Source: an uncultured Actinomycetota bacterium
Lineage (GTDB): Bacteria; Actinomycetota; Actinomycetes; S36-B12; UBA10799
Direction: 5' to 3'
NCBI GenBank assembly: GCA_963732355.1
Contig: CAVSZD010000003.1
Span: forward strand, 76,370-140,369
Length of the DNA: 64,000 nt
Made by a program: the position numbers and the translations under genes. Shown piece by piece: positions 40,156-63,556 of this stretch (its first letter is position 1; every line of letters begins with the position of its first letter). The notes under the pieces are model-generated. The model saw only the letters and a list, made by a program, of their open reading frames with translations. It ran no database searches and was not told where the DNA came from.

Positions 40156-40162
40156 GTCAGTC

Positions 40163-40996: not shown

Positions 40997-41046
40997 GCTT
41001 CCTCCTGACCCCGGACCCCCACACAGGCGGGCAGGAGTGAGTCTAC

Positions 41047-44810: not shown

Positions 44811-44812
44811 CC

Positions 44813-46111: not shown

Positions 46112-46155
46112 CCACGATTTCCTGCGTAGGTCCGACCCGCCCTGCGTGGCCTCTT

Positions 46156-46192
46156 GGTGAAGAAATGCAACCTCACGTGTCACTTCTTCACC
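46156..46192 (+). terminator. stem-loop downstream of rarA (possible intrinsic terminator, no U-tract)
   Basis: ggtgaagaaAtg (46156-46167) pairs with cacTtcttcacc (46181-46192): a 12-bp stem with one mismatch, 45 nt after the rarA stop. Confidence 0.3.
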
Positions 46193-46340
46193 CAAAGGTT
46201 CGTCATGAACCAGATTGCCGACCTCGACGCTCCCTCCGCCACCGAAGATTGACGAGCCGTCATCACAAAGCTGTGGACAACCCCTCCGCAGAACAGGTCA
46301 ATACGGTTGTGGATGGCCAAAGCCCACCTACACTGGGCCG

Positions 46341-46580
46341 ATGAGTCGAATCTTCTGGGTCGGGGTCGGGGCCGCTGGCGGCATCGTCGCCTACCGCAAG
46401 GGCACACAGGCTGTGAACGGTGTGCGCGAGCGTTCGTTTCGCGAGAACCTGACCAAGGTCGCACGCACTGCCTCCAACGTGGCGGCTTCGGCCCGTTACC
46501 TGGCGGCGCTGTCCGCCGATGAGGAGCAGCAGGCAGGCGTGGTGGACATCCGCACGGCCCCCACCGCCGCCCGCGGGTAG
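46341..46580 (+). CDS. small conserved-looking membrane protein, unknown function
   Basis: ATG at 46341 (MSRIFWVGVGAAGGIVAYRKG...). One N-terminal TM. Located just upstream of alaS. Confidence 0.35.
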   Translation: MSRIFWVGVGAAGGIVAYRKGTQAVNGVRERSFRENLTKVARTASNVAASARYLAALSADEEQQAGVVDIRTAPTAARG

Positions 46581-46610
46581 CAGCCCCGGCCTGCAACTAG
46601 GCTGGCCCCT

Positions 46611-49283: not shown

Positions 49284-49741
49284 TGCGCAGTGGCGTGCGG
49301 CTGGCCGTCGATGTGGGCTCGGTGCGCATCGGGGTGGCACGCAGCGACGCGTCAGGCACCTTGGCGGTCCCCGAGGCCACGTTGAACGCGCGTAAAGACT
49401 GGCTGGAGGCTCTGGTCGCTCTGGCGGCCGAGTACGAGCCCTTGGAGATCATCGTGGGGCTGCCCGTCTCGCTCGACGGCCAGGAGCGGGATGCCGCAAC
49501 CCGGGCCCGAGAGAGCGCCTCGCAGATCAGCGCCAGATTGCCCGGGATCCCTGTGCGTCTGGTCGACGAGCGCCTGACAACGGTGGCAGCGCACCACCAA
49601 TTGCGCGATGCTGGGATGTCACAACGCAAGGGGCGCGCGGTTGTGGATCAAGCGGCCGCTGTCATCATGTTGCAGGAAACGCTGGACGCTGAACGCACCT
49701 CGGGACACGCCCCGGGCGCACTGATGGACGGAAACTCATGA
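49283..49741 (+). CDS. ruvX: Holliday junction resolvase-like nuclease RuvX/YqgF
   Basis: 152 aa. RLAVDVGSVRIGVARSD N-terminus, DERLTTV motif. Immediately after alaS. Confidence 0.85.
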   Translation: MRSGVRLAVDVGSVRIGVARSDASGTLAVPEATLNARKDWLEALVALAAEYEPLEIIVGLPVSLDGQERDAATRARESASQISARLPGIPVRLVDERLTTVAAHHQLRDAGMSQRKGRAVVDQAAAVIMLQETLDAERTSGHAPGALMDGNS

Positions 49742-50832
49742 GCGAACTCGGCCTGAACATGGAGGTGGAACCTCCCAGAGGCTCGGATCCGGAGAAGAAG
49801 GGCCGCGGGGCGGTCGTTTTCGCAGTGGTGATCTTCGGCGTCGTGCTGGCCGGGATCCTGGGACTGTTCCTCAAGGATCAGGTGTTCGGCGCCGAGCAGG
49901 ACTTCGCAGGCGACGGCACCGGTGAGGTGGTCGTACAGGTCGAAGCCGGCCAGACGCTGTCCGACATCGGCGTGACCCTGGCCGAGGCCGGCGTGGTGGC
50001 CAGCGACGGGTCGTTCATCGATGCGGCGGCAGCCAACGACAAGGCCCAGACCATCGCCCCCGGGTACTACACGCTGGCCAAGAGCATGAGCGGGCAGGCC
50101 GCGGTCGAAGCCATGTTGGATCCTGCCAACCGTGTCGTATCGCGGGTGGTCATCCCGGAGGGGCTGCGCCTCGACCAGGTGCTCAAGAGGTTGGAGCAGG
50201 CCACGGACATCCCGCAAGCCCGGTTGGTGGCCGCGCTGAAGGACGCCGATGCGCTCGGGCTGCCGGGATTCGCTGACGGCAACCCTGAGGGCTTCCTGTT
50301 CCCGGCCACCTACGAGTTCGCACCAGACGCGTCGGCGCGCGAGGTCATCGCCGCCATGCTGACCCGCTACAACGAAGCGGCCGACAGTCTCAAGTTCGTC
50401 CAGAGGTCCAAGAAGACCGGCTACTCGCCGTACGAGGTCATGGTGATCGCCAGTCTCGTACAGGCCGAAGGCCATCCCGACGACTACGGCAAGGTGTCCC
50501 GGGTCGTCTACAACCGACTGGCGGCAGGGATGCCGCTGCAGTTCGACGCCACGGTCAACTACGCGCTGAAGAAGTCCGAGATAAACCTCTCTCGTGACCA
50601 GATCCGCACGAAGTCCCCGTACAACACCTACGCGAACACCGGACTGCCGCCCACCCCGATCAACCAACCGGGAGAGGCAGCCATGGAGGCTGCGCTGGAG
50701 CCTGACAAGGGCGACTGGATCTACTTCGTCGCCGTCAACCCCGACACCGGGCAGACGAAGTTCACCAGCAAGTATCCGGAGTTCCTGAAGTTCAAGAGGG
50801 AGTTCGAGGACTACATCGCGGAGAACGGGTGA
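49738..50832 (+). CDS. mltG: endolytic murein transglycosylase MltG (YceG-like)
   Basis: 364 aa, N-terminal TM, ASLVQAEG and YNTY...GLPPTPI.NPG motifs. Confidence 0.85.
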   Translation: MSELGLNMEVEPPRGSDPEKKGRGAVVFAVVIFGVVLAGILGLFLKDQVFGAEQDFAGDGTGEVVVQVEAGQTLSDIGVTLAEAGVVASDGSFIDAAAANDKAQTIAPGYYTLAKSMSGQAAVEAMLDPANRVVSRVVIPEGLRLDQVLKRLEQATDIPQARLVAALKDADALGLPGFADGNPEGFLFPATYEFAPDASAREVIAAMLTRYNEAADSLKFVQRSKKTGYSPYEVMVIASLVQAEGHPDDYGKVSRVVYNRLAAGMPLQFDATVNYALKKSEINLSRDQIRTKSPYNTYANTGLPPTPINQPGEAAMEAALEPDKGDWIYFVAVNPDTGQTKFTSKYPEFLKFKREFEDYIAENG

Positions 50833-51632
50833 CCCGCAACGCGGCTGTCGTCGGTTCGCCCATTTCCCACAGTTTGTCCCCGGTTCTGCACAAAGCCGCT
50901 TATCAGGCTCTCGGGCTGGACTGGGTCTATTGGGGTCTCGAGGTCAACGAGGAACAACTGCCGGGTTTCATCGACCGGCTCGATGATTCCTGGGTCGGAC
51001 TGTCCCTGACGATGCCGTTGAAGGAGGCTGTGCTCACTCTCAGCAACGACGTGAGTTGGGCCGCGCGGGTGACCCGCTCAGCCAACACGCTGCTGTTACC
51101 GCAGCGGGCTGCGCTCAACACCGACGTCGACGGGATCGTGATGGCGTTGCGCCGGGCCGGTTTCAGCGCCCAGCCCGGGTTCACGGCCGCCATCGCTGGT
51201 GCCGGAGCCACTGCCCGCTCAGCGGTGGCCGCACTGCACGAACTCGGCGCGGGTGAGATTCACATCCTGGCCCGCAGGCCCGAAGCGGTCGATCCAGCGC
51301 GCGCTACCGCTGAGCAGATCGGGATCGATCTACAGGCACATGGGTTCGACGACCTTGCCCCGTTGGGCGCCGAGGTCGTCATCGCCACTGTCCCGTCGGG
51401 GGTGGCAGATGTGCTGACCCCGGGGATACCCGGCTCGCCCGGCTGGCTGCTCGATGTCGTGTACTCACCGTGGCCCACCGTGCTCGCGCAGGCCTGGTCA
51501 GCCCGGGGTGGTCGGATCGTCTCTGGACTGGAGATGCTGCTGGCCCAAGCCGAGCGCCAGGTTGAACTCATGACTGGACAACCCGCACCTACTGACGCCA
51601 TGCGCGCGGCGTTGCCTTCCACTCACGCCTGA
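50829..51632 (+). CDS. aroE: shikimate dehydrogenase
   Basis: 267 aa. VGSPISHSLSPVLHKAAY, SLTMPLK, NTD and GAGATARS dinucleotide-binding motifs. Confidence 0.85.
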   Translation: MTRNAAVVGSPISHSLSPVLHKAAYQALGLDWVYWGLEVNEEQLPGFIDRLDDSWVGLSLTMPLKEAVLTLSNDVSWAARVTRSANTLLLPQRAALNTDVDGIVMALRRAGFSAQPGFTAAIAGAGATARSAVAALHELGAGEIHILARRPEAVDPARATAEQIGIDLQAHGFDDLAPLGAEVVIATVPSGVADVLTPGIPGSPGWLLDVVYSPWPTVLAQAWSARGGRIVSGLEMLLAQAERQVELMTGQPAPTDAMRAALPSTHA

Positions 51633-51684
51633 GGGCTCGCGTTTCGGCCATACTCGGACAAGTACACGTGGAAAGGAATGGTCG

Positions 51685-52572
51685 ATGGCTGACATAGAGG
51701 TTCCCCAGTCTGGTGCCTCCGATATCGTCGGTCGACTGCTCAGCGACGCCCTCAGCGAGCACCCGGACGTGCAATGGCTCGGGCTGGTCTCCGAGGACGG
51801 TTTCGCTATCGCGTCCGAGGGGGCCGTGGCAGTGGACGACGATGCGGTCGCGGCGGGCGCGGTCCGGATGATGATCCAGGTGCGGACCCTGTCCAAGGCA
51901 CTCGGGCAGACGGGGACGTCGCAGATGTTCCTGGAGGGCAACGAGAGCGGCATCTGTGTCATCGACAAGGATCCGTGGGTGCTGGTCGTGGTCGGTGCGC
52001 CCGGAGTCCCCATCGGTCTATTGCGCTATGAGGCCAGGGAGATCGCAGAGGCGTTCCCGATGGGCCAGCGCGCTGCCTTGACGGCGACCCCGTACGAGAC
52101 CGATGACCAGCCAGAACCGGAGTGGTCGGTCGTTACGGGCAGCTTTCCCGACGGCTCCTTCGAGGATTCGGACCTTCAAGCAGCGGCCCCATCTGCCGAT
52201 GAGAGCGACGTGACCCGCACCGATGGTGAGGCTGAGATCCGCTGGGCCGGCGAGCCCACGGTCTTCGACGCGTCGCCAGGGTCGGACCTGTTCGGCTCGG
52301 CGGGAGCTGAGGAGATCGTGGACCTTGAGATGCCCTCCCTGGCCGACGCCACCGTGGAGGACTTCACGGGTTGGGATGCCCCGGCCCCCCTGGAACACAA
52401 TGCGATGTTCGATCTGCCTGCCCCGGACGCTGAGGTGCCGGTGTCGTTCGAGATGCCAGCTCCTGTCAGCGCGGACCAGTTCGATCTGACTGATCTGGCC
52501 CCACCGAGCGGGCCCGCGATCGACCTCCCACCGCCGGCCGGACCCGCATTCGAACTGCCGCCCCCGGAGTAG
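51685..52572 (+). CDS. Roadblock/LC7 (MglB-like) domain protein with long acidic Pro-rich tail
   Basis: The N-terminal roughly 125 aa have a Roadblock-like pattern (VQWLGLVSEDGFAIAS...MFLEGNESGICVIDKDPWVLVVV). The C-terminal roughly 170 aa are D/E/P-rich with PPSGPAIDLPPPAGPAFELPPPE repeats. Confidence 0.5.
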   Translation: MADIEVPQSGASDIVGRLLSDALSEHPDVQWLGLVSEDGFAIASEGAVAVDDDAVAAGAVRMMIQVRTLSKALGQTGTSQMFLEGNESGICVIDKDPWVLVVVGAPGVPIGLLRYEAREIAEAFPMGQRAALTATPYETDDQPEPEWSVVTGSFPDGSFEDSDLQAAAPSADESDVTRTDGEAEIRWAGEPTVFDASPGSDLFGSAGAEEIVDLEMPSLADATVEDFTGWDAPAPLEHNAMFDLPAPDAEVPVSFEMPAPVSADQFDLTDLAPPSGPAIDLPPPAGPAFELPPPE

Positions 52573-52575
52573 CCC

Positions 52576-53445
52576 ATGCTTCTGTCCGGCTCGCTCGAGG
52601 CCTTCCGCGTCCAGGATCTTCTGGGTCTGGTGGGTCGCAAGCCCGGGCAGTGGCTGATCAGTGTGAATTCCGGGCCCAAGCGGGCCTACATAGGGCTTCG
52701 AGACCGGGCTGTCGTGTGCGTCTCAGCCGACGAGGACCACGAGGATCTGGCCAGGCGGCTCGTCGTCGAAGGTGCTGTTGGCACCACGGGTCTGGCAGAG
52801 GCCATGAAGCATGCCAACGAACAGGGCCTTGGGTTGGTGCGTGCTTTGGTCGATAGCGACAGGGTGGACCCTTCCGGGATCGAGCCGATGGTACGCGCCC
52901 ACGTTGTGAGCGCGCTGGCCGCGCTGAGCCATTGGCGCACAGGGGCGTTCACCGCCGACGTCGTGGATGTGTTGCCCGACGATCTAGGTCCGGCCTTCAC
53001 TTTGGCTGACATCGGCCCCGAGGTCAGCCACCTGCTGCAGCGCTGGCGCCCCGCTTCGGACGCGCTCGGGGGCCCGAAGACGGTCATGGCCGTTTACCCC
53101 GGCCAGGTGCCCGTGCGCCTGACCGGACTGCACTCGCTCATCGACGGGCACCGCAACGTCATGGAACTCATCGAGGCCTCCGGGCACGGTGAGATCGGCA
53201 CCGTGGTGGATCTGGCCGACCTCGTCGAATCCGGGTGTGCTGCCCCGATCACGGGCAAGGTTGGAGCAGTGGAACAGCGCCTGGCGATGCTCGCGGCGAT
53301 GGAGCACTCCGGATCCAAGCGGCCCACCGAACAACCCCGCTTCTCAGTGATAGAGGGCGGCGAGAATCAGTCGAGTCCCCCTGTCGTGGCGCAGCCCGAG
53401 GACGATCTGCTCACAGCCCTGATCAAGGGGGTGCGGGGCGTATGA
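52576..53445 (+). CDS. DUF4388 (PATAN-like) domain protein
   Basis: N-terminal LSGSLEAFRVQDLLGLVGRKPGQWLISV matches the G.L..f.l.dllq...G.L pattern of DUF4388. Its stop overlaps the pilB ATG. Confidence 0.55.
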   Translation: MLLSGSLEAFRVQDLLGLVGRKPGQWLISVNSGPKRAYIGLRDRAVVCVSADEDHEDLARRLVVEGAVGTTGLAEAMKHANEQGLGLVRALVDSDRVDPSGIEPMVRAHVVSALAALSHWRTGAFTADVVDVLPDDLGPAFTLADIGPEVSHLLQRWRPASDALGGPKTVMAVYPGQVPVRLTGLHSLIDGHRNVMELIEASGHGEIGTVVDLADLVESGCAAPITGKVGAVEQRLAMLAAMEHSGSKRPTEQPRFSVIEGGENQSSPPVVAQPEDDLLTALIKGVRGV

Positions 53446-55106
53446 AGCAACTGGGCGAGATCCTCGTGTCCCAAGGCCTGATCAGCCACGACCAGTTGGA
53501 CAAGGCGCTCACCGAGCAGCGCGGGGCAGGACACTCCCTGGGCAGAGTCCTGATCGATCTCGGGATCCTCACGGAGTCGCAAGTCGTGCAGGCCCTGGCA
53601 GCCCAGATCGGGATGCGATTCGTGGATCTCACCGAGTTCACCCTCGACGGCGCGGCGCTGACGAAGGTGCCCGGCAGCGTGTGCCGTCGACATAGTTCCA
53701 TCCCCATCGGTTTTGAGAATGGCCGTCTGCTGGTGGCGATGAGTGACCCGGCGAACGTCTTCGCCATCGATGACATCCGCTCGGCCAGTGGCATGAGTGT
53801 CCAGGCCGTGGTCGCCACACGCACCGACGTACAGGCGGCGCTCGACCGGCACTACCGGGCCGACGGCGAGCTGGATGAGTTGACGACCGCTCTGGACGCC
53901 GACGAGGAGGACGAGGACCTCGCATCCATCAAAGAGGTCGTCGAGGACGCTCCCATCGTCAAGTTCGTGAACCTGCTGATCACGCAGGGTATACAGGACC
54001 GTGCCTCAGACATCCATCTCGAACCGACCGAGTTCGATCTGCGGGTGAGATATCGCATCGACGGCGTCCTGCACGAAGTGATGCGCTCACCGAAGTCCAT
54101 ACAGTCCGGGGTCATCAGCCGTCTGAAGATCATGTCGGACATCAACATCGCCGAGAGGCGTATCCCGCAGGACGGCCGGATGAGCGTGACCGCCAACGGC
54201 CAGAAGATCGACCTGCGCGTCGCGACCCTGCCCACGGTCTGGGGCGAGAAGATCGTCCTGCGGATTCTGGACAACTCCACGGCGATGCTGGACCTTGCCG
54301 ACCTGGGCTTCCGCGACGTCAACTACGAGCGATACTCGGCCAGTTTCGGCAAGCCGTACGGGATGATCCTCGTTGTGGGCCCGACGGGATCGGGCAAGTC
54401 GACGACGTTGTACGCGACCGTGAACATCCTCAACCGCCCTGAGGTCAATGTCATCACCGTCGAGGACCCCGTGGAGTACCGGTTGGCGGGGGTCAACCAG
54501 GTGCAGACCCACGCCAAGGCAGGCCTCACGTTCGCTGCAGCGTTGCGATCGATCCTGCGCTCCGACCCTGACATAGTGCTCATCGGTGAGGTCCGCGACC
54601 ATGAGACGGCCCAGATCGCGGTCGAGTCCGCGTTGACCGGCCACCTCGTTCTGTCCACGTTGCACACCAACGACGCACCGAGCGCGATCACCCGGTTGAT
54701 CGAGATGGGGATCGAACCGTTCCTGGTCGGATCGGCGGTCGACTGCGTGCTCGCCCAGCGCCTGGCCCGGCGGTTGTGCCCCAAATGCAAAGAGGCCTAC
54801 CAGCCCACGGTGGCAGCGTTGCAGGCTGCCGGACTAGCGCTGGAGCCCGGGCAGAGTCCGCCGCGGATCTACCGGCCGGTCGGCTGCTCAGTCTGTTCGC
54901 GCACCGGTTACAAGGGCCGTGTGGCCCTGCACGAGGTGCTGCCGATCACCGAACGCATCGAGCACCTGGCCGTCGAGCGGGCATCCTCTGCCACCATTGC
55001 GCTCGCCGCCCGGGAAGAGGGCATGCAGACACTTCGTCAGGACGGTCTGGCCAAGGTGCTGGCTGGCGTCACCAGTCTGGACGAGGTCCTTCGCGTCGTC
55101 GCCTGA
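53442..55106 (+). CDS. pilB: type IV pilus assembly ATPase PilB (GspE family)
   Basis: ATG at 53442 (ATGA overlap). MshEN-like N-terminus (LGEILVSQGLISHDQLDKAL), [13 protein letters not shown] Walker A, tetracysteine CPKC...CSVC motif. Confidence 0.9.
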   Translation: MKQLGEILVSQGLISHDQLDKALTEQRGAGHSLGRVLIDLGILTESQVVQALAAQIGMRFVDLTEFTLDGAALTKVPGSVCRRHSSIPIGFENGRLLVAMSDPANVFAIDDIRSASGMSVQAVVATRTDVQAALDRHYRADGELDELTTALDADEEDEDLASIKEVVEDAPIVKFVNLLITQGIQDRASDIHLEPTEFDLRVRYRIDGVLHEVMRSPKSIQSGVISRLKIMSDINIAERRIPQDGRMSVTANGQKIDLRVATLPTVWGEKIVLRILDNSTAMLDLADLGFRDVNYERYSASFGKPYGMILVVGPTGSGKSTTLYATVNILNRPEVNVITVEDPVEYRLAGVNQVQTHAKAGLTFAAALRSILRSDPDIVLIGEVRDHETAQIAVESALTGHLVLSTLHTNDAPSAITRLIEMGIEPFLVGSAVDCVLAQRLARRLCPKCKEAYQPTVAALQAAGLALEPGQSPPRIYRPVGCSVCSRTGYKGRVALHEVLPITERIEHLAVERASSATIALAAREEGMQTLRQDGLAKVLAGVTSLDEVLRVVA

Positions 55107-55169
55107 CCCCGCGGCTGCCTCAAGGCCATCCGTGGATGTGCCGACACCGACTGTGAGTCCTCGTGGAGG

Positions 55170-56317
55170 TTGTCGATGTCGGTTCAGAACATGCACGCGC
55201 CCCCGGTTCCAGCGCGGCCAACCACCGAACAGCAGGTGCAAGCCGGCGACATCAGCCTGGTCCAGGCACTTGAAGCCATGTTGGATCTCGGCGCGAGTGA
55301 CCTGCACCTGACCGCGGGTGCACCCCCGACGGTGCGCGTCGCGGGCAACTTGCAGCCTCTGACGGGGGCCCCGCGCATGGATCCCGCTGCGCTGCAACGG
55401 GTGCTGTACGCGATGCTCACGCAGGAGCAGCGGGAGACCTTCGAACAAGCACTCGAACTCGACTTCTCCTACGCGCTGCCAAGGCGTGCTCGGTTCCGCG
55501 TGAACCTCTACCGGCAGCGCGACGCTCTCGGGGCGGCCTTCCGCATGATTCCCGTACGAGATCAAAGACCTCGACTCGTTGGGCATCCCGCCGGCCGTGG
55601 CGAACTTCGCTTCACTGCCGCGTGGGTTCGTTCTGGTGACCGGACCAACCGGTTCGGGCAAGAGCACGACGCTGGCGGCCCTCATCGACATCGTCAATAC
55701 GAACCGTCACGACCACATCATGACCGTCGAGGATCCCATCGAGTTCCTGCACCGGCACCGCAACTGCCTTGTGAACCAGCGCGAGGTCGGTCACGACACC
55801 CACTCGTTCGCTGAGGCGCTCAAGCACGTACTGCGCCAGGACCCCGACGTCATCCTGGTCGGGGAGATGCGTGACCTCGAAACGATCCAGGTTGCGCTCA
55901 CCGCCGCTGAGACCGGCCACCTGGTGTTCGCAACCCTGCACACCCAGGACGCGGCGCAGACCATCGACCGCATCATCGACGTCTTCCCGCCGCATCAACA
56001 GCAGCAGATCCGCCAGCAACTGGCGGGGACTCTTGCAGGGCGTCGTGTGCCAGACCTTGTGCAAGACCGTTGATGGGCGGGGCCGTGTAGCCGCGGCGGA
56101 GGTTCTGGTCGCCACACCGGCCATTCGCAACCTCATCCGTGAAGGGAAGACCCACCAGATCTACTCCGCCATGCAGGCGGGTGCGAAGTTCGGGATGCAG
56201 ACCATGGACCAGAACCTGGCTGAGCTCGTCCGGCGCAACAAGATCACCTACGAACTCGGGGTGGACAAATGCCATCACGTGGAGGACTTCAACCGGCTCA
56301 TGGGTAGGACCTCATGA
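55170..56317 (+). pseudogene. pilT: twitching-motility ATPase PilT, frame broken twice (+1 at about 55553-55555 and +1 at about 56032-56036)
   Basis: Three successive overlapping ORFs (55170-55814, 55579-56073, 55871-56317) each carry consecutive PilT segments: GASDLHLTAG...AFRMIP | [30 protein letters not shown] | LQGVVCQTL...ATPAIRNLIREGK. Confidence 0.85.
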
Positions 56318-57534
56318 GCCTGGCCACCTTCGACTATCAAGTCCGCGACCGGAGCGGCAAACTCGTTCGCGGGCGCATCGACGCGGAGTCGGCGTCCGTG
56401 GTGGCGACGAAGCTCAAGGGTATGGGGTACGCGCCGATCTCCATCGCCGAGGCGAACGCGGGCCTGAACAAGGAACTCCACATCCCGGGGATGGGAACGA
56501 AGGTCAAGCTGAAGGACCTCGCAATATCGTCGCGCCAGTTCGCAACGATGATCAACTCCGGGCTGTCCCTGCTGCGCGCTCTGTCCATCCTCGCCGAACA
56601 GACGGAGAACAAGAAGCTCGCGGAGGTCTTCGCCTCGGTGCGGATCGCGGTCGAGCAAGGGTCCTCGTTGTCCCAGGCGCTCGGACAGCACCCCGACGTC
56701 TTCCCGCCGATCATGGTCAACATGACCCGGGCGGGGGAGACCGGCGGGTTCCTGGACACCGTCTTGCTGCAACTGGCGGAGAACTTCGAGGCCGAGGTCA
56801 AACTGCGTTCCAAGATCAAGTCAGCGATGACCTACCCGGCGGTTGTCTTCGGCTTCGCGATCATCTCGATGACTGCGATGCTGCTGTTCATCGTTCCTGT
56901 ATTCGCCGGCCTGTTCGACAGTCTCGGCGGGGTGCTGCCGCTGCCCACCCGCATACTCGTGGCGCTGTCCTCGATGCTGAAGATGATGATGCCCGTCTTC
57001 ATCGTTCTGCTCATCGTCGGGATGACGCTCTGGCGCAAGTACAAGAACGACCCGCGAGTTCGAAACGTCGTCGATCCGATGAAACTCAAGGCGCCCGTCT
57101 TCGGTTCCCTGTTCCAGAAGGTCGCGTTGTCGCGCTTCAGCCGCAACCTCGGCACGATGATCCACGCGGGCGTACCGATCCTGCAGTCGCTGGACATCGT
57201 CGCCGACACCACCGGGAACGTGGTGATCGCCAGAGCCGTGCAGGACGTGGAAAAGTCGGTACGACAGGGCGAGTCCCTGGCCGCGCCACTGGTCAACCAC
57301 GACGTGTTCCCGTCGATGGTCGTGCAGATGATGGCGGTCGGGGAGGACACCGGTGCCCTCGACGCGATGCTGCACAAGATCTCCGACTTCTACGATGCGG
57401 AGGTGGAGGCCACGACTGAGGCGCTGACCTCCATCATCGAGCCGATCATGATCGCCGTGGTGGGCGGCATGATCGGGGCCATGATCGTGGCCCTGTACAT
57501 GCCGATCTTCAAGATCTTCGACCTGATTAAGTAG
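56314..57534 (+). CDS. pilC: type IV pilus inner-membrane platform protein PilC (GspF family)
   Basis: 406 aa. Two T2SSF repeats (LSLLRALSILAEQTEN..., VPILQSLDIVADTTGN...), three TM regions. Confidence 0.9.
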   Translation: MSLATFDYQVRDRSGKLVRGRIDAESASVVATKLKGMGYAPISIAEANAGLNKELHIPGMGTKVKLKDLAISSRQFATMINSGLSLLRALSILAEQTENKKLAEVFASVRIAVEQGSSLSQALGQHPDVFPPIMVNMTRAGETGGFLDTVLLQLAENFEAEVKLRSKIKSAMTYPAVVFGFAIISMTAMLLFIVPVFAGLFDSLGGVLPLPTRILVALSSMLKMMMPVFIVLLIVGMTLWRKYKNDPRVRNVVDPMKLKAPVFGSLFQKVALSRFSRNLGTMIHAGVPILQSLDIVADTTGNVVIARAVQDVEKSVRQGESLAAPLVNHDVFPSMVVQMMAVGEDTGALDAMLHKISDFYDAEVEATTEALTSIIEPIMIAVVGGMIGAMIVALYMPIFKIFDLIK

Positions 57535-57555
57535 GCGGTTGGCGCAATTATAATA

Positions 57556-57583
57556 ATAAAAAATTAAAAAAAAAATTATTAAG
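57556..57583 (+). repeat. left copy of the terminal imperfect direct repeat (AT-A6-TT-A10-TTATTAAG)
   Basis: Compare with 60053-60074 (AT-A5-TT-A9-TAAG). Same order of elements, differing by one A in each homopolymer and a TTAT insertion. Confidence 0.55.
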
Positions 57584-57736
57584 TTTGTAAAAAAATTCGT
57601 CCTCTCCGCAAGGACAGGTGTACGTGCCGAAAGCTGAGGTTATCAGCGACGATCAATGCTCTGACGCATAGCCGTGATCGATCAGGATATTCCAATGCTG
57701 ACAGACGCTGTCGTTATAATACGCTGCCAGTGTTTC

Positions 57737-57923
57737 GGTGATGATGTAAATATTGATAGGAAAAAAATAAAATAATTAAGTTTGTTTTGAAGAAAAATGT
57801 AAATAGAGTGAAAGAGTAATTTATGTGTGAAAATGAAAGAGATTAGTTGAAAAATGTTTAATTTTGTTTGTAGTATAATTATGAATGATTATGTTTTATT
57901 AAGATAAGTGGTGTATGTTTGTT
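57737..57923 (+). other. C-free tract (187 nt, 0 C)
   Basis: Manual scan: only A, G and T on the + strand. Confidence 0.85.
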
Positions 57924-57999
57924 CAGATGCTCGATTGTGGACGTCAAGATCGTATATGTGATTCTCTCTCGACCTCAGTATGAGTCGCTGAAGAGATTC

Positions 58000-58616
58000 G
58001 AGATGGTATGTAATAAAAGAAATTTAATAAGTTAGATGAGATAAAAAATTGAAAAAAATTTTGAAGTTTATAAAAATAATAAAGAGTAATGAACGGTGAG
58101 GAAAAGGAAAGGAAGAGTGATTGGAAATAAGGATGAAAATAGAGATAGATGTAGTGATGGAAATAAAGAATGAAAAATAATTTTATATAAAGTTGAAAGA
58201 AGTTGAAGAAGGAAAGATGAATAAAATATTAGATGATAATGTGATGGATGATGTAATTAGAAAGAAGATAAATAAAATGAAAGAATTAAAGTAGTAGAAT
58301 TGTAGGAAGTATATGGAATTTAAGTAAAAAATTAGAAATAAATGATAAGAAATAATATTATTGAGAGAAGAGTGTGATTGAATGAAATGTAGGATATAAT
58401 GAATTGTAATTAAGAAAAGTGTAGAAGATTAAGGATATTAGGTGGATAAAAGATGTGAAATATGATGGATTATATAGTAGATGGAGTTTAAAAATTGAAA
58501 TGATTTAGAAAATGGATGGAAATTTAAATATGGGATAGGTATACTAAATTTGATTAGTGTTTGAGATATACTGAGAAATATAAATGATGTTGATTGAAGA
58601 AGTGGTGTGAGAATAT
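58000..58616 (+). other. C-depleted tract (617 nt, 3 C; 58095-58543 has none)
   Basis: Manual scan: C only at 58094, 58544 and 58571. Example 58101-58160 = 28 A, 21 G, 11 T, 0 C. Confidence 0.85.
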
Positions 58617-58761
58617 CCTGATGGCGATGACCAAGTGGATGTGACGGCGCGGCTCGAACGCGGCGTCATCCCAGTTTATGAATGCCGGTGTTTACAGGGT
58701 GTTATAGTGAAGTTTACGTTGAAAGGACTGGCTGTTCGAGGTAAGGCGGAGATGACCTTCC

Positions 58762-58986
58762 ATAGAGAAGTGAGATAAAAAGAGGAAATTAGTAAATTGT
58801 TTAAAGGTTGAATGGTAGTATATTGAAGAATAAGAATGTGAAAATTAGAATGTGAAAAAAGGTAAAAGAAAGTAGAAGTTGAGAAAATTTGTAGTAGTAA
58901 AGATATATTAGTGAATGAGAAAGATATAAGTTTAGGAAATGAGATAAGGATAATTTAATGATGATGGAGTAGAATTTGTTAAATTG
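58762..58986 (+). other. C-free tract (225 nt, 0 C)
   Basis: Manual scan. Confidence 0.85.
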
Positions 58987-59059
58987 CGGCGTAGTCCCGT
59001 CGATTGGGTTGCTGCGTGGCCCATCAGTGTAAGATTCTACAGCTGCCAGTCGATCAAGC

Positions 59060-59199
59060 GAATATATATAATATAGGAAATAAGTATGAGTAAAAGGATA
59101 ATATAATATAAGAAGAGATATGTTTGAGAATTTGATTATTGAAATAAAAAGAAATGAATTTGAATGAAAGAATAAGAGTTGTAGTAAGGAAGAAAAAGT
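59060..59199 (+). other. C-free tract (140 nt, 0 C)
   Basis: Manual scan. Confidence 0.85.
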
Positions 59200-59396
59200 C
59201 GTTGAACCACTTGATGTGCGGCTTCACGGAGGCATGCGAGCATTTGAAGTTCTCGTTACGTATATGATCGGCCGAGCGTTCGCGAGTCGAAACTGGCATT
59301 ATAGCCTGTAAAGAGGCTAGTGCGGAATGCTTGATGAGTATTACGCGTTATCGCGGACGCGTAGCTGTGGAACGATGGTTGCGAGGTGATGAGGTC

Positions 59397-59506
59397 TTGT
59401 GAAATTATATGTAGAAGTTGTATAGAGATATAGAATTTTAATGATTAGAGATTGAGACTGAAATAGTTATTGGAAATTTGGATAATTTAGTAAAGTTGGT
59501 TAAATG
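59397..59506 (+). other. C-depleted tract (110 nt, 1 C at 59458)
   Basis: Manual scan. Confidence 0.85.
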
Positions 59507-60052
59507 CGTAGCAGGGGTGCCAGTGCCGATCCGGTCAATAAAATATAATTATTTTCGACCGTTTCCGTCGACGAACAGGATGTGGAATGGTCAATCGAAC
59601 TGGGTTTCGTGAGCGACTGCTGATACCAGGACCGGTAGATTCAGTCGCGATTTCATGAACGTGGAAGAGGTCGCTTCATCGCGTGGGCAACGACTCGTGT
59701 TACGTGTGGATTGCTGCGATACGAAGTAACGGCGCTCCGCGGATCCCGCCTGGCGGATTTAGCCTAATCAATAGTTTCTAGCGATAACGCTGCGATTGAT
59801 CGTTCAGTAGAATGGCTGCATAGAGAAGTTACCAGTGCATGCGATGGTGTATGATTCAAGAATCAGTACAGCAAGCAGCGTAGTTTCCATTGACTCGTAC
59901 TTCAAGAACGGTATGGCGTTGGCTGAACGGAGGCAAACGCAATCGGAGCTTGGCGGATATGGTTCACGGAACTCGACGTATCTATTCTTCGCAGCAGAAT
60001 CCTGACATCTTGGTGACGGCGGTATTCCGCTGCTAAATGATGATTCGTTAAT

Positions 60053-60074
60053 ATAAAAATTAAAAAAAAATAAG
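60053..60074 (+). repeat. right copy of the terminal imperfect direct repeat (AT-A5-TT-A9-TAAG)
   Basis: See 57556-57583. It ends exactly where the tniB remnant begins. Confidence 0.55.
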
Positions 60075-60808
60075 TGACGGGCGGCGCCGGGTTCGGGAAG
60101 ACCGCGATCAGCGTCGGTTTCCTGCGCGTATACGAGCAGGAATGCGGCCGCGTACCCGGCCGCGTTCGCGCAGGAGAACGAGTTATCCCAGTTGCCTACT
60201 CCAGTCTGCTGCGCGGCGCCGGACTGAAATCGCAAATGCAGCACATCCTCGGGTTCTTCGGGCATCCGATGCCCGGTCGGCCAGCGGCGCGCAACTCGCC
60301 GACGAACTCATAAGGTCCTAATCTGTGCCGCACGAAGATTCTCTGCCTCGATCAAGCGCAAAACCTGCACGTCGGGAACCGCAAAGACGAGGAGTCGCCG
60401 CCTACCTGAAAGAGATCATGGACGCCGCGCACGTCGCGTTGATTCTCACCGGAATCGACATTGACCAGGCAGGGCCGCTGGCCATGCCGAGCAGCGGTAG
60501 GCGGCTGCAAACAGTAACGACCGGGTGCAGTTGGCCCGCCGCTTCGCCGTCGTCAAGATACGTCCCCTCGCACTAGGGTCTACAGCGTGGCAAGACCTCA
60601 TGGCTAGTATCGAGCGGCAACTCGTCCTGGCGAAAGCCCGCCCGGCGACCTATCTCAATCGTTGGCGAACCTTGTCTGGGAACTGAGCAACGGGGCGATT
60701 GGGGTGGCGTTCAACCTGCTTCGTGTCGCCGCGAACACGGCGATCAGTGACGTGATCGAGCGATCACCGGCAGACTCTGCGTGCCACCGCGAGGACCTTG
60801 GAGGCTGA
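60074..60808 (+). pseudogene. tniB: TniB/TnsC-like AAA+ transposition ATPase remnant, N-terminally truncated, with several frameshifts and in-frame stops
   Basis: Segments in different frames read, in order: GGAGFGKTAI (Walker A), IPVAYSSL..LKSQMQHILGFFGHP, SGAQLADELIRS, KILCLDQAQNLHVGNRK (Walker B-like, E replaced), GVAAYLKEIMDAAHVALILTGIDID, DRVQLARRFAVVKIRPL, LANLVWELSNGAIGVAFNLLRVAANTAI. This order is typical of TniB. A tniQ-like gene follows. Confidence 0.6.
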
Positions 60809-60834
60809 CCGACTCGGCCGTGGGAAGGTGTCGC

Positions 60835-61883
60835 ATGACCGTCACCCACTACGCACTTCTGCCCGATACGAACCTTCCGGTGGCCGTCCACCCCGTACCT
60901 GGGGAGACGTTTCACTCGTGGACGTTGCGGCTGGCCGAACGCCTCGGCGTGGAACCGATACGTGCCCTGAAAGCAATCGGATACGTGAGCAGTCACGTAC
61001 GAAGCCGCGCAAACTGACCTCCTACGGCATCACAGCCACCGACCAGTCCATCGGCGAAATGTCCCGCACAACCCGCGCCCGAAGCAGCAGTGCGAGCAAC
61101 CTGCTCACCGTGTTCGACGGCGGCCCCGCCGCCTTCGGTGACTACACGCTCGGCAAGCCAGGAGCCGTCCGCCGCCTCGCGACCCGAACTGGCTGCACCT
61201 CGGCACCAGCACCTGCTGCCGACTGCCTACGTGCAAGCGGAAACGCTTGGCACCTCACGTGGCGGCTCCCATGGCAGACCATGTGCACCGAACACGGCAC
61301 GCTGATGGTCGCGACCTGCCCCGCGTGCCGCCTGCCGTTCAACGCAGGTAGCCGCAGAGACGGCACCTCGGACCGCGCACCAGCAACCTGCCCTCCCCGC
61401 CGACAGATGCGCGAACCGCTCGACACGGAACACCGCACCCCTACCCGCCACTGTGCGGCCACCCTACGCGGACATCCCCACGACCGTCTGCACTCAACCG
61501 GCAGTCGTCGCCACCAAACCAGGTCGACGCGCTCCTGGCCGTTGGGTACCGCGACCAGAATCACGAGTGGTGGCAAGACCTCCGCACCGTCACCGCGACA
61601 CTGCTCAGCCACGGCGACCCCGCCGTGATCCTCAACTACCTGCCGGTCTACCCGACCTCGCCGAGCACTCGGTCGATGAGCACTACGCGGCCAGGAACCG
61701 CGTTGACGCGGAACGCTCCAGCATCACGAACGGCGGTGGAGACCACCGCACCGCGTCCCGCCGCCGCACCTACTGGGACACCATAACAACCCGCCCTCAT
61801 CGCCGCGATCCTGCCTTACGCCATCGCGGTACTCCACGACCTCGACCACATCCCGGAATCTTGAGCGGCGATGCCAGCCGCTG
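60835..61883 (+). pseudogene. tniQ: TniQ-family protein remnant (frameshifted; 3' limit uncertain)
   Basis: ATG at 60835 after GGAAGGTG. The N-terminus LPVAVHPVPGETFHSWTLRLAERLGV fits the TniQ pattern P.pgE...SW..RLA. The frame stops at 61017 and the next frame continues with KLTSYGITATDQSIGEMSRTT and the zinc-finger region WHLTWRLPWQTMCTEHGTLMVATCPACRLPF (61248-61340). Further frames are needed downstream. Confidence 0.5.
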
Positions 61884-62145
61884 GTGGACATTGACGCCGT
61901 GGACCTTCTCGATGAGATGGTGCGCGGTCGCGGCCACAACCTCACCACCGAGTTTCGGCAACGCGCAGCGAGCGACACGCTCATCAGCCGCCTATCCACG
62001 CGAAGCCGCTACAACCCGCTCGCCGGGCAACCGGGGCACGCGGCAACAATCCGACAACGGCTATTATCGTCACCAGGTCACAACGGCGGTAGAAATCCTG
62101 GAATCCCTGGGAGCCGTCAAGGCAGTCCGAACGGAGGCAGGCGCG

Positions 62146-62550
62146 ATGAAGCATGTGAGCCTCACCACCGAGGCGTTCCTTCTCCTCCGCCCGGACGCAC
62201 CCAGTGCGGCGACCGCGCAGAACATCACACACAACACCATGATTGGGTCGCCCGGAGGCTCCCAATCGGTGGTGGCGACCGCCACACTGCACCAGCCTAT
62301 TCCCGGGGGACTACTCGCTGGATTGGCGGAACTCGAAGCGGAATTCACAAGCCCTCACATGCGAACCGTCTACGGGGAACTGGTAGACGAAACGCGAGAG
62401 GCGGCCACCAGCGGAGACCAAGGTCGGATCGCCAAAGCCCTAGCGAAGATCAAGCACTTCCTGTCAATGGTCGCTGTCGATGCAGCGTCGCAACTCACGA
62501 TTGCCGGGGCCGCGCAACTCCCCGCCATCGTGCAGAGCCTCAACTCGTGA
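62146..62550 (+). CDS. small hypothetical protein with ITHNTMIGSPGGSQSV motif (paralogue of 63125-63556; possibly 5'-truncated)
   Basis: ATG at 62146, 8 nt after GGAGG (62133-62137). Similarity to the wHTH-like part of the third gene extends upstream of this ATG (TTAVEILESLGAVKAVR), so the ancestral start may be lost. Confidence 0.4.
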   Translation: MKHVSLTTEAFLLLRPDAPSAATAQNITHNTMIGSPGGSQSVVATATLHQPIPGGLLAGLAELEAEFTSPHMRTVYGELVDETREAATSGDQGRIAKALAKIKHFLSMVAVDAASQLTIAGAAQLPAIVQSLNS

Positions 62551-63128
62551 GCGGTCCTCAAGCGCTCTTTGCGATAGATCAGTGCATCGTGATCGCAGCA
62601 GCCGACGCTAGCGACAATCACCACGCTGACGTGTCGGTTTTCCTCGCCGCCGCAGCAGAAGCCGGAGCACGGATCGGCGTTGCCACCACGCTGCAACAAG
62701 ACCTCAACAGAGCGCCAACCGAGCGACGCGACAAGATTCTGGCATTCGTCAAAGACCAATCGTGGAAGGTGCTACCGGGCTTATTCACCCTGGACTACTC
62801 CCCGCTGCCAGATGACGACGACGAGATGGCCGACCTGCTAGCCGAGGAACCCCTCAGCGAGCAGGTCACCGACCTTATCGCAGACCCATCCCACCCCGCA
62901 TGCGACACACATGCCTACCACGACTACCACCATTACGAAGCAGCCGTACGAAACCAGGCGACGGCGTTCGTTACCAGCGACAAGAAGTTCATCAAAGGAA
63001 TGCGCCAGTTCGAGAAACTGCCCGTGCCGATCATTCAGCCCCCAGAAGCAATTTCACTGCTTCGGAGCGATGCGGTGCCGAGTCAATCAACGCCGTCCGC
63101 CCCTGAGGACACCCTGGAGCACGCATGA
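62547..63128 (+). CDS. PIN-like domain protein (193 aa)
   Basis: GTG at 62547 overlaps the upstream stop (GTGA). N-terminal ALFAIDQCIVIAAAD and C-terminal ATAFVTSDKKFI resemble the first and last acidic motifs of PIN-like nucleases. The assignment is from pattern only. Confidence 0.35.
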   Translation: MSGPQALFAIDQCIVIAAADASDNHHADVSVFLAAAAEAGARIGVATTLQQDLNRAPTERRDKILAFVKDQSWKVLPGLFTLDYSPLPDDDDEMADLLAEEPLSEQVTDLIADPSHPACDTHAYHDYHHYEAAVRNQATAFVTSDKKFIKGMRQFEKLPVPIIQPPEAISLLRSDAVPSQSTPSAPEDTLEHA

Positions 63129-63556
63129 CCAAGAAACTCACCGAACTGGAAGCCGACATACTCCAGTGGTGGCTACAAGAAGCCACCCGCGGCAGAGCAA
63201 ACCGTCGCGTCATAGCCGAGGAGTACCTGAAAGCAACCCCGGACATTGCCGCGTCCCAATTCGCATCTGCCGTCGACGCGCTGGAAGCCTTCGGTCTCGT
63301 CACGCCCACCCGCGCGTGGGGAGGACATGTGTACCGTGTTTGCCTCACGCCGCAAGCACTCATCCTCGGACGAGAAGACCAGGGTGGCCCCACCATTCAC
63401 AACACCGTGCACAACACCATGATCGGCTCGCTCGGCGGGCAGCAAACTGTTCACGAAGCCGCCAGCGCCACCGATCACGCTACGGACGGACAGGAGGGAA
63501 CGCGTACCCTGCTGGATCGTGATACGGGCACAGACGCCACGACTGCTTCGGGCTGA
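63125..63556 (+). CDS. small wHTH-like hypothetical protein with VHNTMIGSLGGQQTV motif
   Basis: ATG at 63125 overlaps the upstream stop (ATGA). 143 aa. SAVDALEAFGLVTPTRAWGGHVYRVCLTPQALILG resembles a winged-helix wing. Disordered T/D-rich tail. Confidence 0.45.
   Translation: MTKKLTELEADILQWWLQEATRGRANRRVIAEEYLKATPDIAASQFASAVDALEAFGLVTPTRAWGGHVYRVCLTPQALILGREDQGGPTIHNTVHNTMIGSLGGQQTVHEAASATDHATDGQEGTRTLLDRDTGTDATTASG

Follow-up and report, generated by a model that had tools for sequence, protein, structure and literature searches.

A C-excluding 2.5-kb block at a Tn7-like transposon junction in an uncultured actinobacterial genome, possibly derived from poor long reads

Exclusion of one base from one strand of DNA is an established laboratory device: a G-less or C-less cassette is a template that is transcribed with one NTP omitted. 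Our literature search for one-strand base exclusion turned up this laboratory use alone, and we know of no earlier case of natural DNA that excludes one base from one strand at the scale described here. The sequence in question is a block of about 2.5 kb in a 64-kb stretch of DNA from the metagenome-assembled genome (MAG) of an uncultured soil or sludge actinobacterium; the whole 64-kb stretch that was analysed is called the window below. Like the laboratory cassettes, the block lacks one base on one strand over hundreds of nucleotides. Unlike them, it has no defined promoter, finds no sequence match among plasmid records, and is A/T-rich with several tracts and stray C's, whereas the classic cassette is C/T-rich.

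Strand-coordinated hypermutation, as in deaminase clusters, fungal RIP or 8-oxoG damage, also gives base loss from one strand in patchy tracts, with intermediate segments whose skew has the same sign. The block differs from it in that deamination leads to T-rich DNA whereas the tract is A-rich, no parent sequence was found in a merged alphabet, and the neighbouring sequence is not hypermutated. Rho utilisation (rut) regions resemble the predicted minus-strand transcript of the block, which would have more C than G, be G-free with 24% C, and be unstructured. However, this transcript would be 48% U with CC depleted (odds ratio 0.59), and the locus is not conserved. The position of the block recalls a Tn7-like insertion downstream of a conserved gene, with tniB and tniQ fragments oriented as pilC, but tnsA, tnsB, the 5' part of tniB and recognisable transposon ends are replaced by the block.

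Long-read data sets are known to include junk reads, random reads and read glitches (PMC6966772). The block is like such junk and glitches in Flye/Medaka assemblies in having no homology, a random-like sequence, occurrence in one assembly and a place at a mobile-element junction. Strand-asymmetric homopolymer deletions at a raw-read rate lie alongside it, and it is shorter than the true sequence that was replaced. Typical read junk as described is of low complexity, whereas the block is non-repetitive, and we know of no citable junk signature in which strict exclusion of one base over 449 nt alternates with balanced segments.

Composition of the C-free tract and of the surrounding block

A preliminary description of this DNA had reported 617 nt with three C, including 449 nt with none, and our recount gave identical figures. 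The tract at 58000-58616 is composed of 294 A, 175 T, 145 G and 3 C (fractions A.476, T.284, G.235). The three C's are at 58094, 58544 and 58571, and the longest run without C is 58095-58543 (449 nt). The C-free stretch is really in the sequence as given. The interval 58101-58160, described as 28 A, 21 G, 11 T and no C, was also reproduced exactly. In the rest of the window G+C is 64% and the longest C-free run is 24 nt. At the C frequency of the window, a run of 449 nt lacking C has a probability of 4e-73, and still of 1e-25 if C were 12%; a pattern of 200 nt with no C was seen in 0 of 100 shuffles of the window. These counts uphold the earlier view that the tract shows base exclusion beyond mere low G+C, with a GC skew of +1 and a purine-rich plus strand. 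For the seven tracts together, the total of 4 C was confirmed, while our own boundaries gave a summed length of 1,362 nt in place of 1,358 nt. The dinucleotides of the tracts are biased, with odds ratios of 0.59 for GG, 1.33 for TG and 1.22 for GA.

Per 205 codons, the plus-strand frames of the tract hold 22-35 stops. The frame that begins at 58001 is saturated with stops over its 206 codons, as described, with 22 stops by our count and not 23. On the minus strand each frame has 4-10 stops, all of them TAA, which is a necessity of the base composition; this bears out the statement that minus frames can stop at TAA alone, and canonical start codons (ATG, GTG and TTG) are also absent in any frame. 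RNA transcribed from the minus strand of 58000-58616 would contain 24% C and 0-0.5% G, so C would far exceed G.

The tract belongs to an anomalous block at 57541-60073 (2,533 nt, about 35% G+C), in which C-free AT-rich tracts alternate with segments of about 50% G+C. The block is the sole compositional outlier in the window, and its features are as follows.

57546-57597, plus strand: left terminal A/T-only tract, 52 nt (A 63%, T 33%, 2 G, 0 C)
57559-57574, plus strand: 16-mer AAAAATTAAAAAAAAA within the left terminal tract
57598-57616, minus strand: terminator-like hairpin followed by a T run, matching the consensus (1 site versus 1.7 expected in shuffles, not significant)
57737-57923, plus strand: C-free tract, 187 nt (A 40%, T 39%, G 21%)
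58000-58616, plus strand: main tract, 617 nt with 3 C by recount
58762-58986, plus strand: C-free tract, 225 nt
59060-59199, plus strand: C-free tract, 140 nt
59397-59506, plus strand: C-poor tract, 110 nt, with one C at 59458 between the C-free parts 59397-59457 and 59459-59506
59507-60046, no strand: largest mixed segment, 540 nt, 50% G+C, more G than C
57598-57736, 57924-57999, 58617-58761, 58987-59059 and 59200-59396: other mixed segments
60047-60073, plus strand: right terminal A-rich tract, from which the C-free run extends over 60047-60077 (31 nt)
60055-60070, plus strand: second copy of the 16-mer AAAAATTAAAAAAAAA, within the right terminal tract

In the mixed segments C makes up 22% and is depleted relative to G (345 G versus 256 C, p = 3e-4), whereas the flanks of the block have at least as much C as G.

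Junctions of the block with pilC and the transposon remnant

The block is flanked on the left by an intact pilus gene and on the right by the remains of a Tn7-like element.

56314-57534, plus strand: pilC, type IV pilus / T2SS protein F, 406 aa, an intact ORF whose exact protein is in a public collection
60074-60835, plus strand: tniB fragment, Tn7-like TnsC-type AAA+ ATPase, with many 1-nt deletions
60836-61855, plus strand: N-terminal part of tniQ, about 340 codons, repeatedly frameshifted, with homology to relatives stopping near 61855
62547-63556, plus strand: two intact cargo genes of 193 aa and 143 aa, with exact copies in two independent Logan contigs

pilC is the last gene common to the window and its sister genomes. 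The closest of these (L168), in which the pilC orthologue is assigned to Pfam T2SSF, is 98.96% identical over 39756-57535 and then carries a DUF222 gene in place of the block. In a relative with 89.5% identity (L068) and in another (L008) homology likewise stops and the block is not there. The left homology break lies at 57535-57537, 1-3 nt past the pilC stop codon; the strain parts from its 99%-identical sister right where the start of a Tn7-like element is expected. Indels in the left flank occur at about 1 per 10 kb. Frameshifts split genes of the window that are intact in the sister genome, and pilB and pilT are frameshifted in this strain. Of ten proteins of the window, nine have exact entries on a public NCBI/ENA contig of 352,509 nt, which also carries the exact pilC protein. 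The contig name of the closest sister ('contig_32292') and the MAG name of L068 ('MFD00905.bin') are in the Flye / Microflora Danica style. Those genomes were assembled by Flye from Nanopore reads alone and polished once with Medaka (PMC12313526).

On the right, homology to tniB begins abruptly at codon 110 (Walker A). The fragment has homologues with PF05621 and PF13401 (E = 6e-97), and the tniQ fragment was identified by tblastn (E = 1e-52); a gene call in the public record (P0055) matches the tniQ piece with 100% identity. Relatives have the order tnsA-tnsB-tniB-tniQ followed by defence-type cargo. No similarity to TnsA or TnsB was found by tblastn anywhere in the window, and transposon ends were not found. 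The block thus fills the place of about 3.5 kb comprising the element end, tnsA, tnsB and the 5' part of tniB, and it falls about 1 kb short of the tnsA-tnsB-tniB 5' region in relatives. Another stretch of roughly 3.6 kb is missing by comparison with the short-read-type Logan contigs that share the exact 193-aa and 143-aa cargo genes: the C-terminal part of tniQ, a 207-aa gene and a 516-aa SLFN/AlbA_2 gene. One of these contigs, 7.6 kb long with an intact tniQ and genes of 207, 516, 199, 193 and 143 aa, comes from a run (ERR12035938) that also holds the exact 295-aa allele of this strain; the second run with contigs for this comparison is ERR15459710.

The 1.7 kb to the right of the block has raw-read-like accuracy. 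Alignment of 60074-61782 with a related locus (L081) gave 27 deletion events but a single insertion, each 1-2 nt long, which corresponds to about 1 indel per 60 nt. C accounted for 18 of the 30 deleted bases. Among homopolymers of at least 4 nt, 6 of 10 C runs and 0 of 5 G runs were shortened, a difference that rests on small numbers (about p = 0.04). Substitutions C-to-A and G-to-T in this adjoining 1.7 kb numbered 33 versus 16 in the reverse direction, compared with 108 versus 142 in the left-flank control. The remaining tniB is still 64% G+C, and the sequence is good again at 62547-63556.

Searches for relatives and biological signal

The block has no homologue among plasmids, phages and E. 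coli genomes. The sole matches were AT-rich stretches of 41-57 nt in Clostridium phage and Cetobacterium sequences (E = 1e-4 to 5e-3), and the two such matches in the plasmid search were judged to be due to chance. An exact 41-mer had no match in viral contigs, and a degenerate M/K/G 41-mer, which would also catch an unconverted parent, had none in metagenome contigs. Long minus-strand ORFs had no match among 5.8 billion proteins. In 165 related loci (1.8 Mb) there was no C-free or G-free run of at least 40 nt, the cut-off being at least 45 nt in loci L081-L165. Exact look-up of nine ORFs in or overlapping the block gave no gene call in the public record, and the public-record calls that match the window near the block, pilC and the tniQ fragment, are both flanking.

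The block might be non-genomic, that is, synthetic DNA in the sample or library, or an addition made to the record in silico. Laboratory cassettes and probes are designed with base exclusion and three-letter alphabets; the block is random-like and sharply bounded, and its ORFs are missing from the public-record gene calls. Matches to plasmids, vectors and adapters are nevertheless absent. The stray C's, the mixed segments with G in excess of C, and the non-independent dinucleotides are unlike a design, and the adjacent raw-read-like errors favour a cause in sequencing over a separate insertion. We consider a non-genomic origin improbable.

Neither ORFs nor protein domains, RNA families, repeats or periodicity were found in the block. 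The largest mixed stretch (59507-60046) has no ORF above 56 aa, no Pfam match in six-frame translation, and no similarity to the tnsB 3' end or the tniB 5' end of relatives. Periodicity at 3 nt or 10.5 nt, which the preliminary description had brought up, did not appear over whole tracts. A coding origin of the tracts was rejected on the absence of whole-tract period-3 and of Pfam matches; one local period-3 bump at about 58090-58300 came from a sliding test of low power, in which even a converted tniB control was weak. DNA curvature or helical periodicity was likewise dismissed, with none at 10.5 nt. Rfam gave no match to the block at the gathering score or at E <= 5, and tRNAs were also absent. 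Folding z-scores of the mixed segments were between -1.1 and +0.5 against shuffles, except for 1 of 12 at -2.7. A repeat array or cassette structure was rejected too: tandem and dispersed repeats are absent and short matches are at chance level. Repeated and inverted k-mers occur as in first-order Markov simulations, and all tri- and tetranucleotides have |z| < 2 relative to the Markov-1 expectation. The block fits a first-order random model.

A functional base-exclusion element, acting as an insulator of transcription or translation or as a Rho-loading zone with more C than G between the pilus operon and the transposon, would draw on the predicted properties of its RNA. Both transcripts, C-less from the plus strand and G-less from the minus strand, would be weakly foldable, and the block would be untranslatable because plus frames are saturated with stops (22-35 per 205 codons) and the minus strand has no start codons. 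The minus-strand RNA with 24% C and about 0% G would be an extreme case of C exceeding G, the left edge has a terminator-like hairpin on the minus strand, and the block has 17 promoter-like sites versus 8.6 expected. However, the number of terminators is at chance and promoter-like sites are expected in AT-rich DNA; the tract transcript would be U-rich rather than C-rich, with CC depleted. Motifs, repeats and structure are absent, and there is no conservation, as the sister strain and all relatives are without the block. The adjoining genes are wrecked, which leaves nothing obvious to insulate. We regard such a function as highly improbable.

The idea of a natural counterpart of the C-less or G-less cassette, raised when the tract was first described, found no support in these results: the block has no homologue, the sister strain lacks it, and it is first-order random. 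It is weakened further by the neighbouring sequence of raw-read quality, in which the errors have the same polarity, with C lost from the plus strand.

Possible origins of the block

Our preferred reading, held at somewhat better than even strength from the sequence and its comparisons, is that the block is junk: one or a few long reads of poor quality supplied it, and it was carried into the consensus at a transposon junction that varies between strains. We favour an artefact most because the block looks like random-like filler and lies where what is probably a long-read metagenome assembly is strain-specific and of very low quality. The platform of the poor reads was probably Nanopore. The region of the element may have been bridged by a single read or very few poor reads, possibly while the assembler was resolving a repeat or a strain bubble with them, and polishing would then have had nothing to correct with. 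Plentiful reads of the sister strain would have polished the consensus up to the exact point of divergence, so that the junk would seem to start precisely at the junction. The basecaller may have emitted hardly any C where the signal was worst and shortened C homopolymers where it was better. The polarity is constant throughout: the tracts have no C, the mixed segments have less C than G, and next door C is the base preferentially deleted.

Several points speak against an artefact. We know of no documented basecaller failure that gives balanced A, T and G without C over hundreds of bases. The mixed segments hold 22% C and yet are equally unrelated to the genes expected there. No adapter sequence was found that would mark a chimeric join. 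If the island-bearing strain dominated the sample, adequate coverage would be expected and the frameshifts would be real pseudogenisation. The asymmetry between homopolymers comes from few runs (about p = 0.04), and the same 16-mer at both ends of the block would equally fit a real element with terminal direct repeats.

This last observation fits the proposal that the block is real, non-functional DNA, foreign or made de novo, that replaced the end, tnsA, tnsB and the 5' part of tniB of a decaying Tn7-like element. The base exclusion would then have been left behind by a process that acted on one strand in the donor, such as untemplated or biased polymerisation or extreme strand-specific transversion mutagenesis. 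The two breakpoints are sharp, their context is that of a mobile element, and the 16-mer forms a direct repeat at both block ends. The neighbouring tniB and tniQ have each lost both ends, which resembles a decayed remnant, and the frameshifts of pilB and pilT make real local decay conceivable. The dinucleotide biases (GG 0.59, TG 1.33, GA 1.22) show that the tracts are not independent random draws, and their composition is that of host DNA in which all C became A and 30% of G became T. A donor or parent is, however, absent from all collections searched. The 99% identity of the sister up to the junction leaves little time for decay in situ, and the remaining tniB still has 64% G+C. Deletions of 1-2 nt only, at 1 per 60 nt, with an asymmetry between C runs and G runs, are unlike natural pseudogenes, none of which shows such a pattern to our knowledge. 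We also know of no polymerase or mutational process that gives kilobase-scale exclusion of C with an A-rich product. Real non-coding DNA usually has an excess of repeats, and there is none in the block. Replacement by real DNA of this kind is unlikely in our judgement. The further claim that the block is a real chromosomal, strain-specific, non-coding insert of 2.5 kb, gained together with the transposition genes of a Tn7-like element or instead of them, whether the fossil of an untemplated or base-restricted polymerase product or a selected spacer that is unfoldable and untranslatable, we consider very improbable.

An artefact here would mean that kilobase-long pieces of non-biological sequence can enter public long-read MAGs at mobile-element junctions that vary between strains. 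In scans of composition such pieces will pass for striking new biology. Three signs could be joined in a cheap screen: exclusion of one base on one strand, the lack of a homologue, and adjacent 1-nt deletions that affect the homopolymers of one strand only. A real block would be a natural counterpart of the laboratory C-less and G-less cassettes and would raise questions of synthesis or selection.

We also considered the block as a hypermutated or mis-called copy of the missing tnsA, tnsB and tniB 5' part, in which C became A and G became T through chemistry cross-talk or transversions of the 8-oxoG type. Merging A with C and G with T is the only merging that gives a balanced two-letter composition, and C-to-A plus G-to-T is the sole substitution type that fits the composition: simulated host DNA with all C converted to A and 30% of G to T has A.485, T.278 and G.237, compared with.476,.284 and.235 observed. 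The adjoining 1.7 kb also has the mild excess of C-to-A and G-to-T. The alignments, however, gave no trace of a parent. Two-letter identity with L081 along the colinear diagonal was 0.489, which is chance. Gapped alignment under an error model scored 21 versus 19.8 +/- 2 for shuffles, while a simulated positive control scored 335. Two further loci, L166 and L082, scored 30-31 versus about 25 +/- 2 under the same model, with controls at 377 and 77. Two-letter 28-mer matches in the window and 80 loci numbered 14 versus 10.6 expected, and no TnsA or TnsB remnant was found by tblastn. A converted copy of tnsA, tnsB and the tniB 5' part is refuted for the relatives that were compared, in tests with positive controls, and in general such a copy is hardly credible.

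Simpler routes from host DNA gave the wrong composition. Decay by C-to-U deamination had been called unlikely from the start, and we agree: a T-rich product is expected whereas the tract is A-rich (48% A, 28% T), and no parent sequence was found in any merged alphabet. Host DNA stripped of every C would consist of G to about 48%, compared with the 24% observed.

Composition of the block

A recount found A 294, T 175, G 145 and three C (58094, 58544 and 58571) in the 617 nt of 58000-58616, and placed the 449-nt run without C at 58095-58543. The three C, the length of the C-free run and the composition of 58101-58160 (28 A, 21 G, 11 T and 0 C) were as claimed in the preliminary description. Six more C-free or nearly C-free tracts were located between 57546 and 60077. 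The claimed total of four C in the seven tracts was correct, but their length is 1,362 nt with our boundaries instead of 1,358 nt. Likewise, the frame starting at 58001 contains many stops as described, but 22 rather than 23. The minus strand of 58000-58616 has no ATG, GTG or TTG codon. Three of the four stray C's were in an ACT context (tatACTaaa, tatACTgag and gagACTgaa; sites within 58540-58575 and 59455-59461), which are too few to judge.

The reported tract is part of a single 2,533-nt block (57541-60073), the sole compositional outlier within the 64-kb window. In the block, AT-rich C-free tracts (A 38-51%, T 28-39%, G 21-25%) alternate with mixed segments, which have 46-58% G+C and more G than C (345 vs 256, p = 3e-4). 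In the block flanks, C is equal to or above G. Outside the block the window has 64% G+C and C-free runs of at most 24 nt. A 449-nt run without C has a probability of 4e-73 at the C frequency of the window and 1e-25 even with C at 12%, and shuffles of the window gave no C-free stretch of 200 nt. Each end of the block is an A/T-only tract, and the two share the 16-mer AAAAATTAAAAAAAAA.

No ORF wholly within the block was longer than 81 aa, and a 153-aa minus-strand ORF (59804-60265) crosses its right edge. The block contained no tRNA, no Rfam match even at E <= 5, and no repeats or arrays beyond chance, and six-frame translations of 59200-60073 contained no Pfam domain. Period-3 and period-10.5 signals, which the preliminary description had proposed to check, were absent over the whole tracts. 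Folding of the mixed segments was no better than that of shuffles (12 folds, z from -1.1 to +0.5, with one at -2.7). Tracts and mixed segments were both first-order Markov-like: repeated and inverted k-mer counts were equal to simulations, and all tri- and tetranucleotides were within |z| < 2 of the first-order expectation. Neither consisted of independent draws, as seen in the tracts from GG 0.59, TG 1.33, GA 1.22 and TA 0.86, and in the mixed segments from CC and GG 0.68 and CG 1.40.

Relatives of the block were searched at several levels. Searches of plasmids, phages and E. coli genomes with blastn gave only chance AT-rich matches of 41-57 nt. An exact 41-mer was not found in viral contigs, nor was a degenerate 41-mer, matching either the tract or an unconverted parent, in metagenome contigs. 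The long minus-strand ORFs of the block had no match among 5.8 billion proteins. No C-free or G-free run of at least 40 nt (45 nt for L081-L165) was present in 165 related loci (1.8 Mb).

The preliminary description had compared the block with laboratory C-less or G-less cassettes. Their defining property is common to the block, but their sequence and context were not found in it, and a literature search returned only such laboratory templates. To the best of our knowledge, nothing biological that can be named works like this block. A genuine natural insert excluding one base from one strand is very unlikely in our estimate, and a functional base-exclusion element is still less credible. Tests for membership in hypermutation clusters, rut-like regions and structured RNAs were all negative.

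Junctions with pilC and the Tn7-like element

On the left, the block adjoins pilC, which is intact (406 aa) and the final gene of a type IV pilus cluster. When PilC was searched against one genome per species, a set without the window, the closest relatives were uncultured Actinomycetota labelled Nanopelagicales. By exact protein look-ups, nine of ten proteins of the window were public entries on an NCBI/ENA contig of 352,509 nt. The look-ups also revealed a sister genome, whose contig (L168; ENA contig_32292, 711,799 nt) was 98.96% identical to the window over 39756-57535, ending one base past the pilC stop. Beyond pilC, L168, the GTDB representative (L068; MAG MFD00905.bin) and a further related locus (L008) go on to a DUF222 gene in place of the block, so the block is strain-specific.

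At the right-hand edge, matches to other sequences begin abruptly at 60074, within a TniB-family ATPase at its codon 110 (Walker A). After tniB, about the N-terminal third of TniQ follows to ~61855. Relatives carry complete Tn7-like modules, tnsA-tnsB-tniB-tniQ with cargo, and these pieces therefore place a Tn7-like element directly after pilC and co-oriented with it. No similarity to TnsA or TnsB was detected anywhere in the window. The block lies where the element end, tnsA, tnsB and the 5' part of tniB are expected, a region of ~3.5 kb in relatives vs 2.5 kb here. The cargo in the window is as follows.

61951-63556: three small cargo genes (~199, 193 and 143 aa)

Exact copies of the 193-aa and 143-aa genes were found in two independent Logan contigs (short-read-type; runs ERR12035938 and ERR15459710), and one of the two runs also has the exact 295-aa allele of this strain. 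In both contigs, tniB and the cargo are separated by a complete tniQ (598 aa), a gene of 207 aa and a minus-strand SLFN_AlbA_2/HATPase_c_4 gene of 495-516 aa. About 3.6 kb of these contigs, including the C-terminal half of tniQ, is skipped in the window between ~61855 and ~61951.

Origin of the block

The 1.7 kb after the block was compared with L081, a related locus with a Tn7-like module (86% identical). Twenty-seven of the 28 gap events were deletions in the window, all events were of 1-2 nt, and C accounted for 18 of the 30 deleted bases, with an indel rate of 1 per ~60 nt. Homopolymers of at least 4 nt were shortened in 6 of 10 cases for C and in 0 of 5 for G, which are small numbers. C-to-A and G-to-T changes were in mild excess (33 vs 16), with no such excess in the left-flank control; the left flank had only four single-base indels against L168 in 17.8 kb aligned. 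Deletion sizes in real pseudogenes span a broad spectrum. Slippage in duplex DNA does not distinguish a C run from a G run, but long-read data of a single orientation can. The sequence from 57541 to ~62000 thus forms a bad interval between two good stretches, in which garbage is followed by raw-read-quality sequence, a skip, and exact sequence again.

The base that is missing from the tracts is also under-represented in the mixed segments and preferentially lost from the adjacent genes, always on one strand, and this points to a single technical cause. All testable sequence-level properties agreed with an assembly artefact, and together with the negative class tests this indicates that the block is most probably not a real feature; a long-read source may be inferred. 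Close relatives were assembled from Nanopore reads only, with Flye and one Medaka polishing (PMC12313526), and long-read data are known to include junk reads, random reads and read glitches (PMC6966772). We consider it moderately probable that the block represents junk of one or a few poor long reads fixed in the consensus, and some other non-genomic origin is quite unlikely. Because the transposon region varies between strains and probably recurs within the community, only one poor read or very few would have bridged it. Up to the exact point of divergence, the consensus would have been polished by plentiful reads from island-free strains, so that the junk seems to begin at the junction. In the worst signal the basecaller would have given essentially no C, and in better signal it would have under-called C in homopolymers.

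Several points count against an artefact. Although C is present in the mixed segments, they show no more relation to the expected genes than the tracts do; the gene calls that tie the window to the public record are all flanking ones; no adapter sequence marks a chimeric join; the homopolymer asymmetry is one of small numbers; and we know of no citable basecaller failure with exactly such a signature. In addition, the shared 16-mer could be the terminal direct repeat of a real element. Some weight therefore remains with real but non-functional foreign DNA, although as an unlikely explanation.

A/C and G/T are the classic confusable pairs of sequencing chemistries. A simulation that converted every C of host DNA to A and 30% of its G to T gave A, T and G at.485,.278 and.237, matching the observed.476,.284 and.235, as if the block were a corrupted copy of the missing transposon genes. 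Direct alignment in the merged alphabet, however, did not recover the tnsA, tnsB and tniB 5' sequence. Two-letter identity (A/C vs G/T) along the colinear diagonal to tnsB 3'/tniB 5' of the closest relative was 0.489, and gapped alignment under the error model scored 21 vs 19.8 +/- 2 for shuffles and 335 for a simulated positive control. Alignment to two other relatives was also negative, and merged-alphabet 28-mer matches to the window and 80 loci were at chance level, leaving this explanation barely tenable. Deletion of every C from host DNA was rejected, as it would leave ~48% G. Deamination of C to T, already regarded as an unlikely origin, was excluded by the A-rich product.

Other observations on the flanking genes

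The four indels against L168 (53378, 55244, 55549 and 56031, in the pilB-like/pilT region 52576-56317) split an 843-aa PilB-like ATPase and a 345-aa PilT into several ORFs, while pilC is intact; they reflect either the assembly or genuine decay of this strain's pilus operon. In the final 3 kb before the junction (54700-57535), divergence from L168 climbs from ~1-5 to 17-35 differences per kb, which might mark a recombination tract that came in with the island, or falling consensus quality. A GGCAGT/GGCAGA hexamer repeat at 40772-40778 varies in length, the window being 18 nt shorter than L168. Far from the block, at 15132-17871, a gene of 912 aa in two sister contigs is divided by a frameshift into 458-aa and 469-aa calls in the source contig. 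Compared with the window and L168, L068 itself shows single-base indels in pilC (near 10376, window 56689) and adjacent genes, which fits with Nanopore-type errors in that MAG.

The Tn7-like element starts 1-3 nt past the pilC stop (57535-57540) in the orientation of pilC, suggesting the pilC 3' end as a candidate TniQ-directed attachment site. Related elements in six other loci (L082-L085, L166 and L167) do not adjoin pilC. The 199-aa and 143-aa cargo products look like paralogues, with an HNTMIGSxGGxQ motif after a winged-helix-like N-terminus; no Pfam family was listed for the counterparts of the cargo genes in the Logan contigs. The three small genes may belong to a defence or addiction module carried by the element. 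A related Tn7-like element in a Logan contig of ERR13731222 (L166, 7240-9759), with 76% nucleotide identity to tniB and tniQ of the window, carries CBASS-like cargo directly after tniQ, with a faint Pfam SMODS match and a ThiF/E1-like gene.
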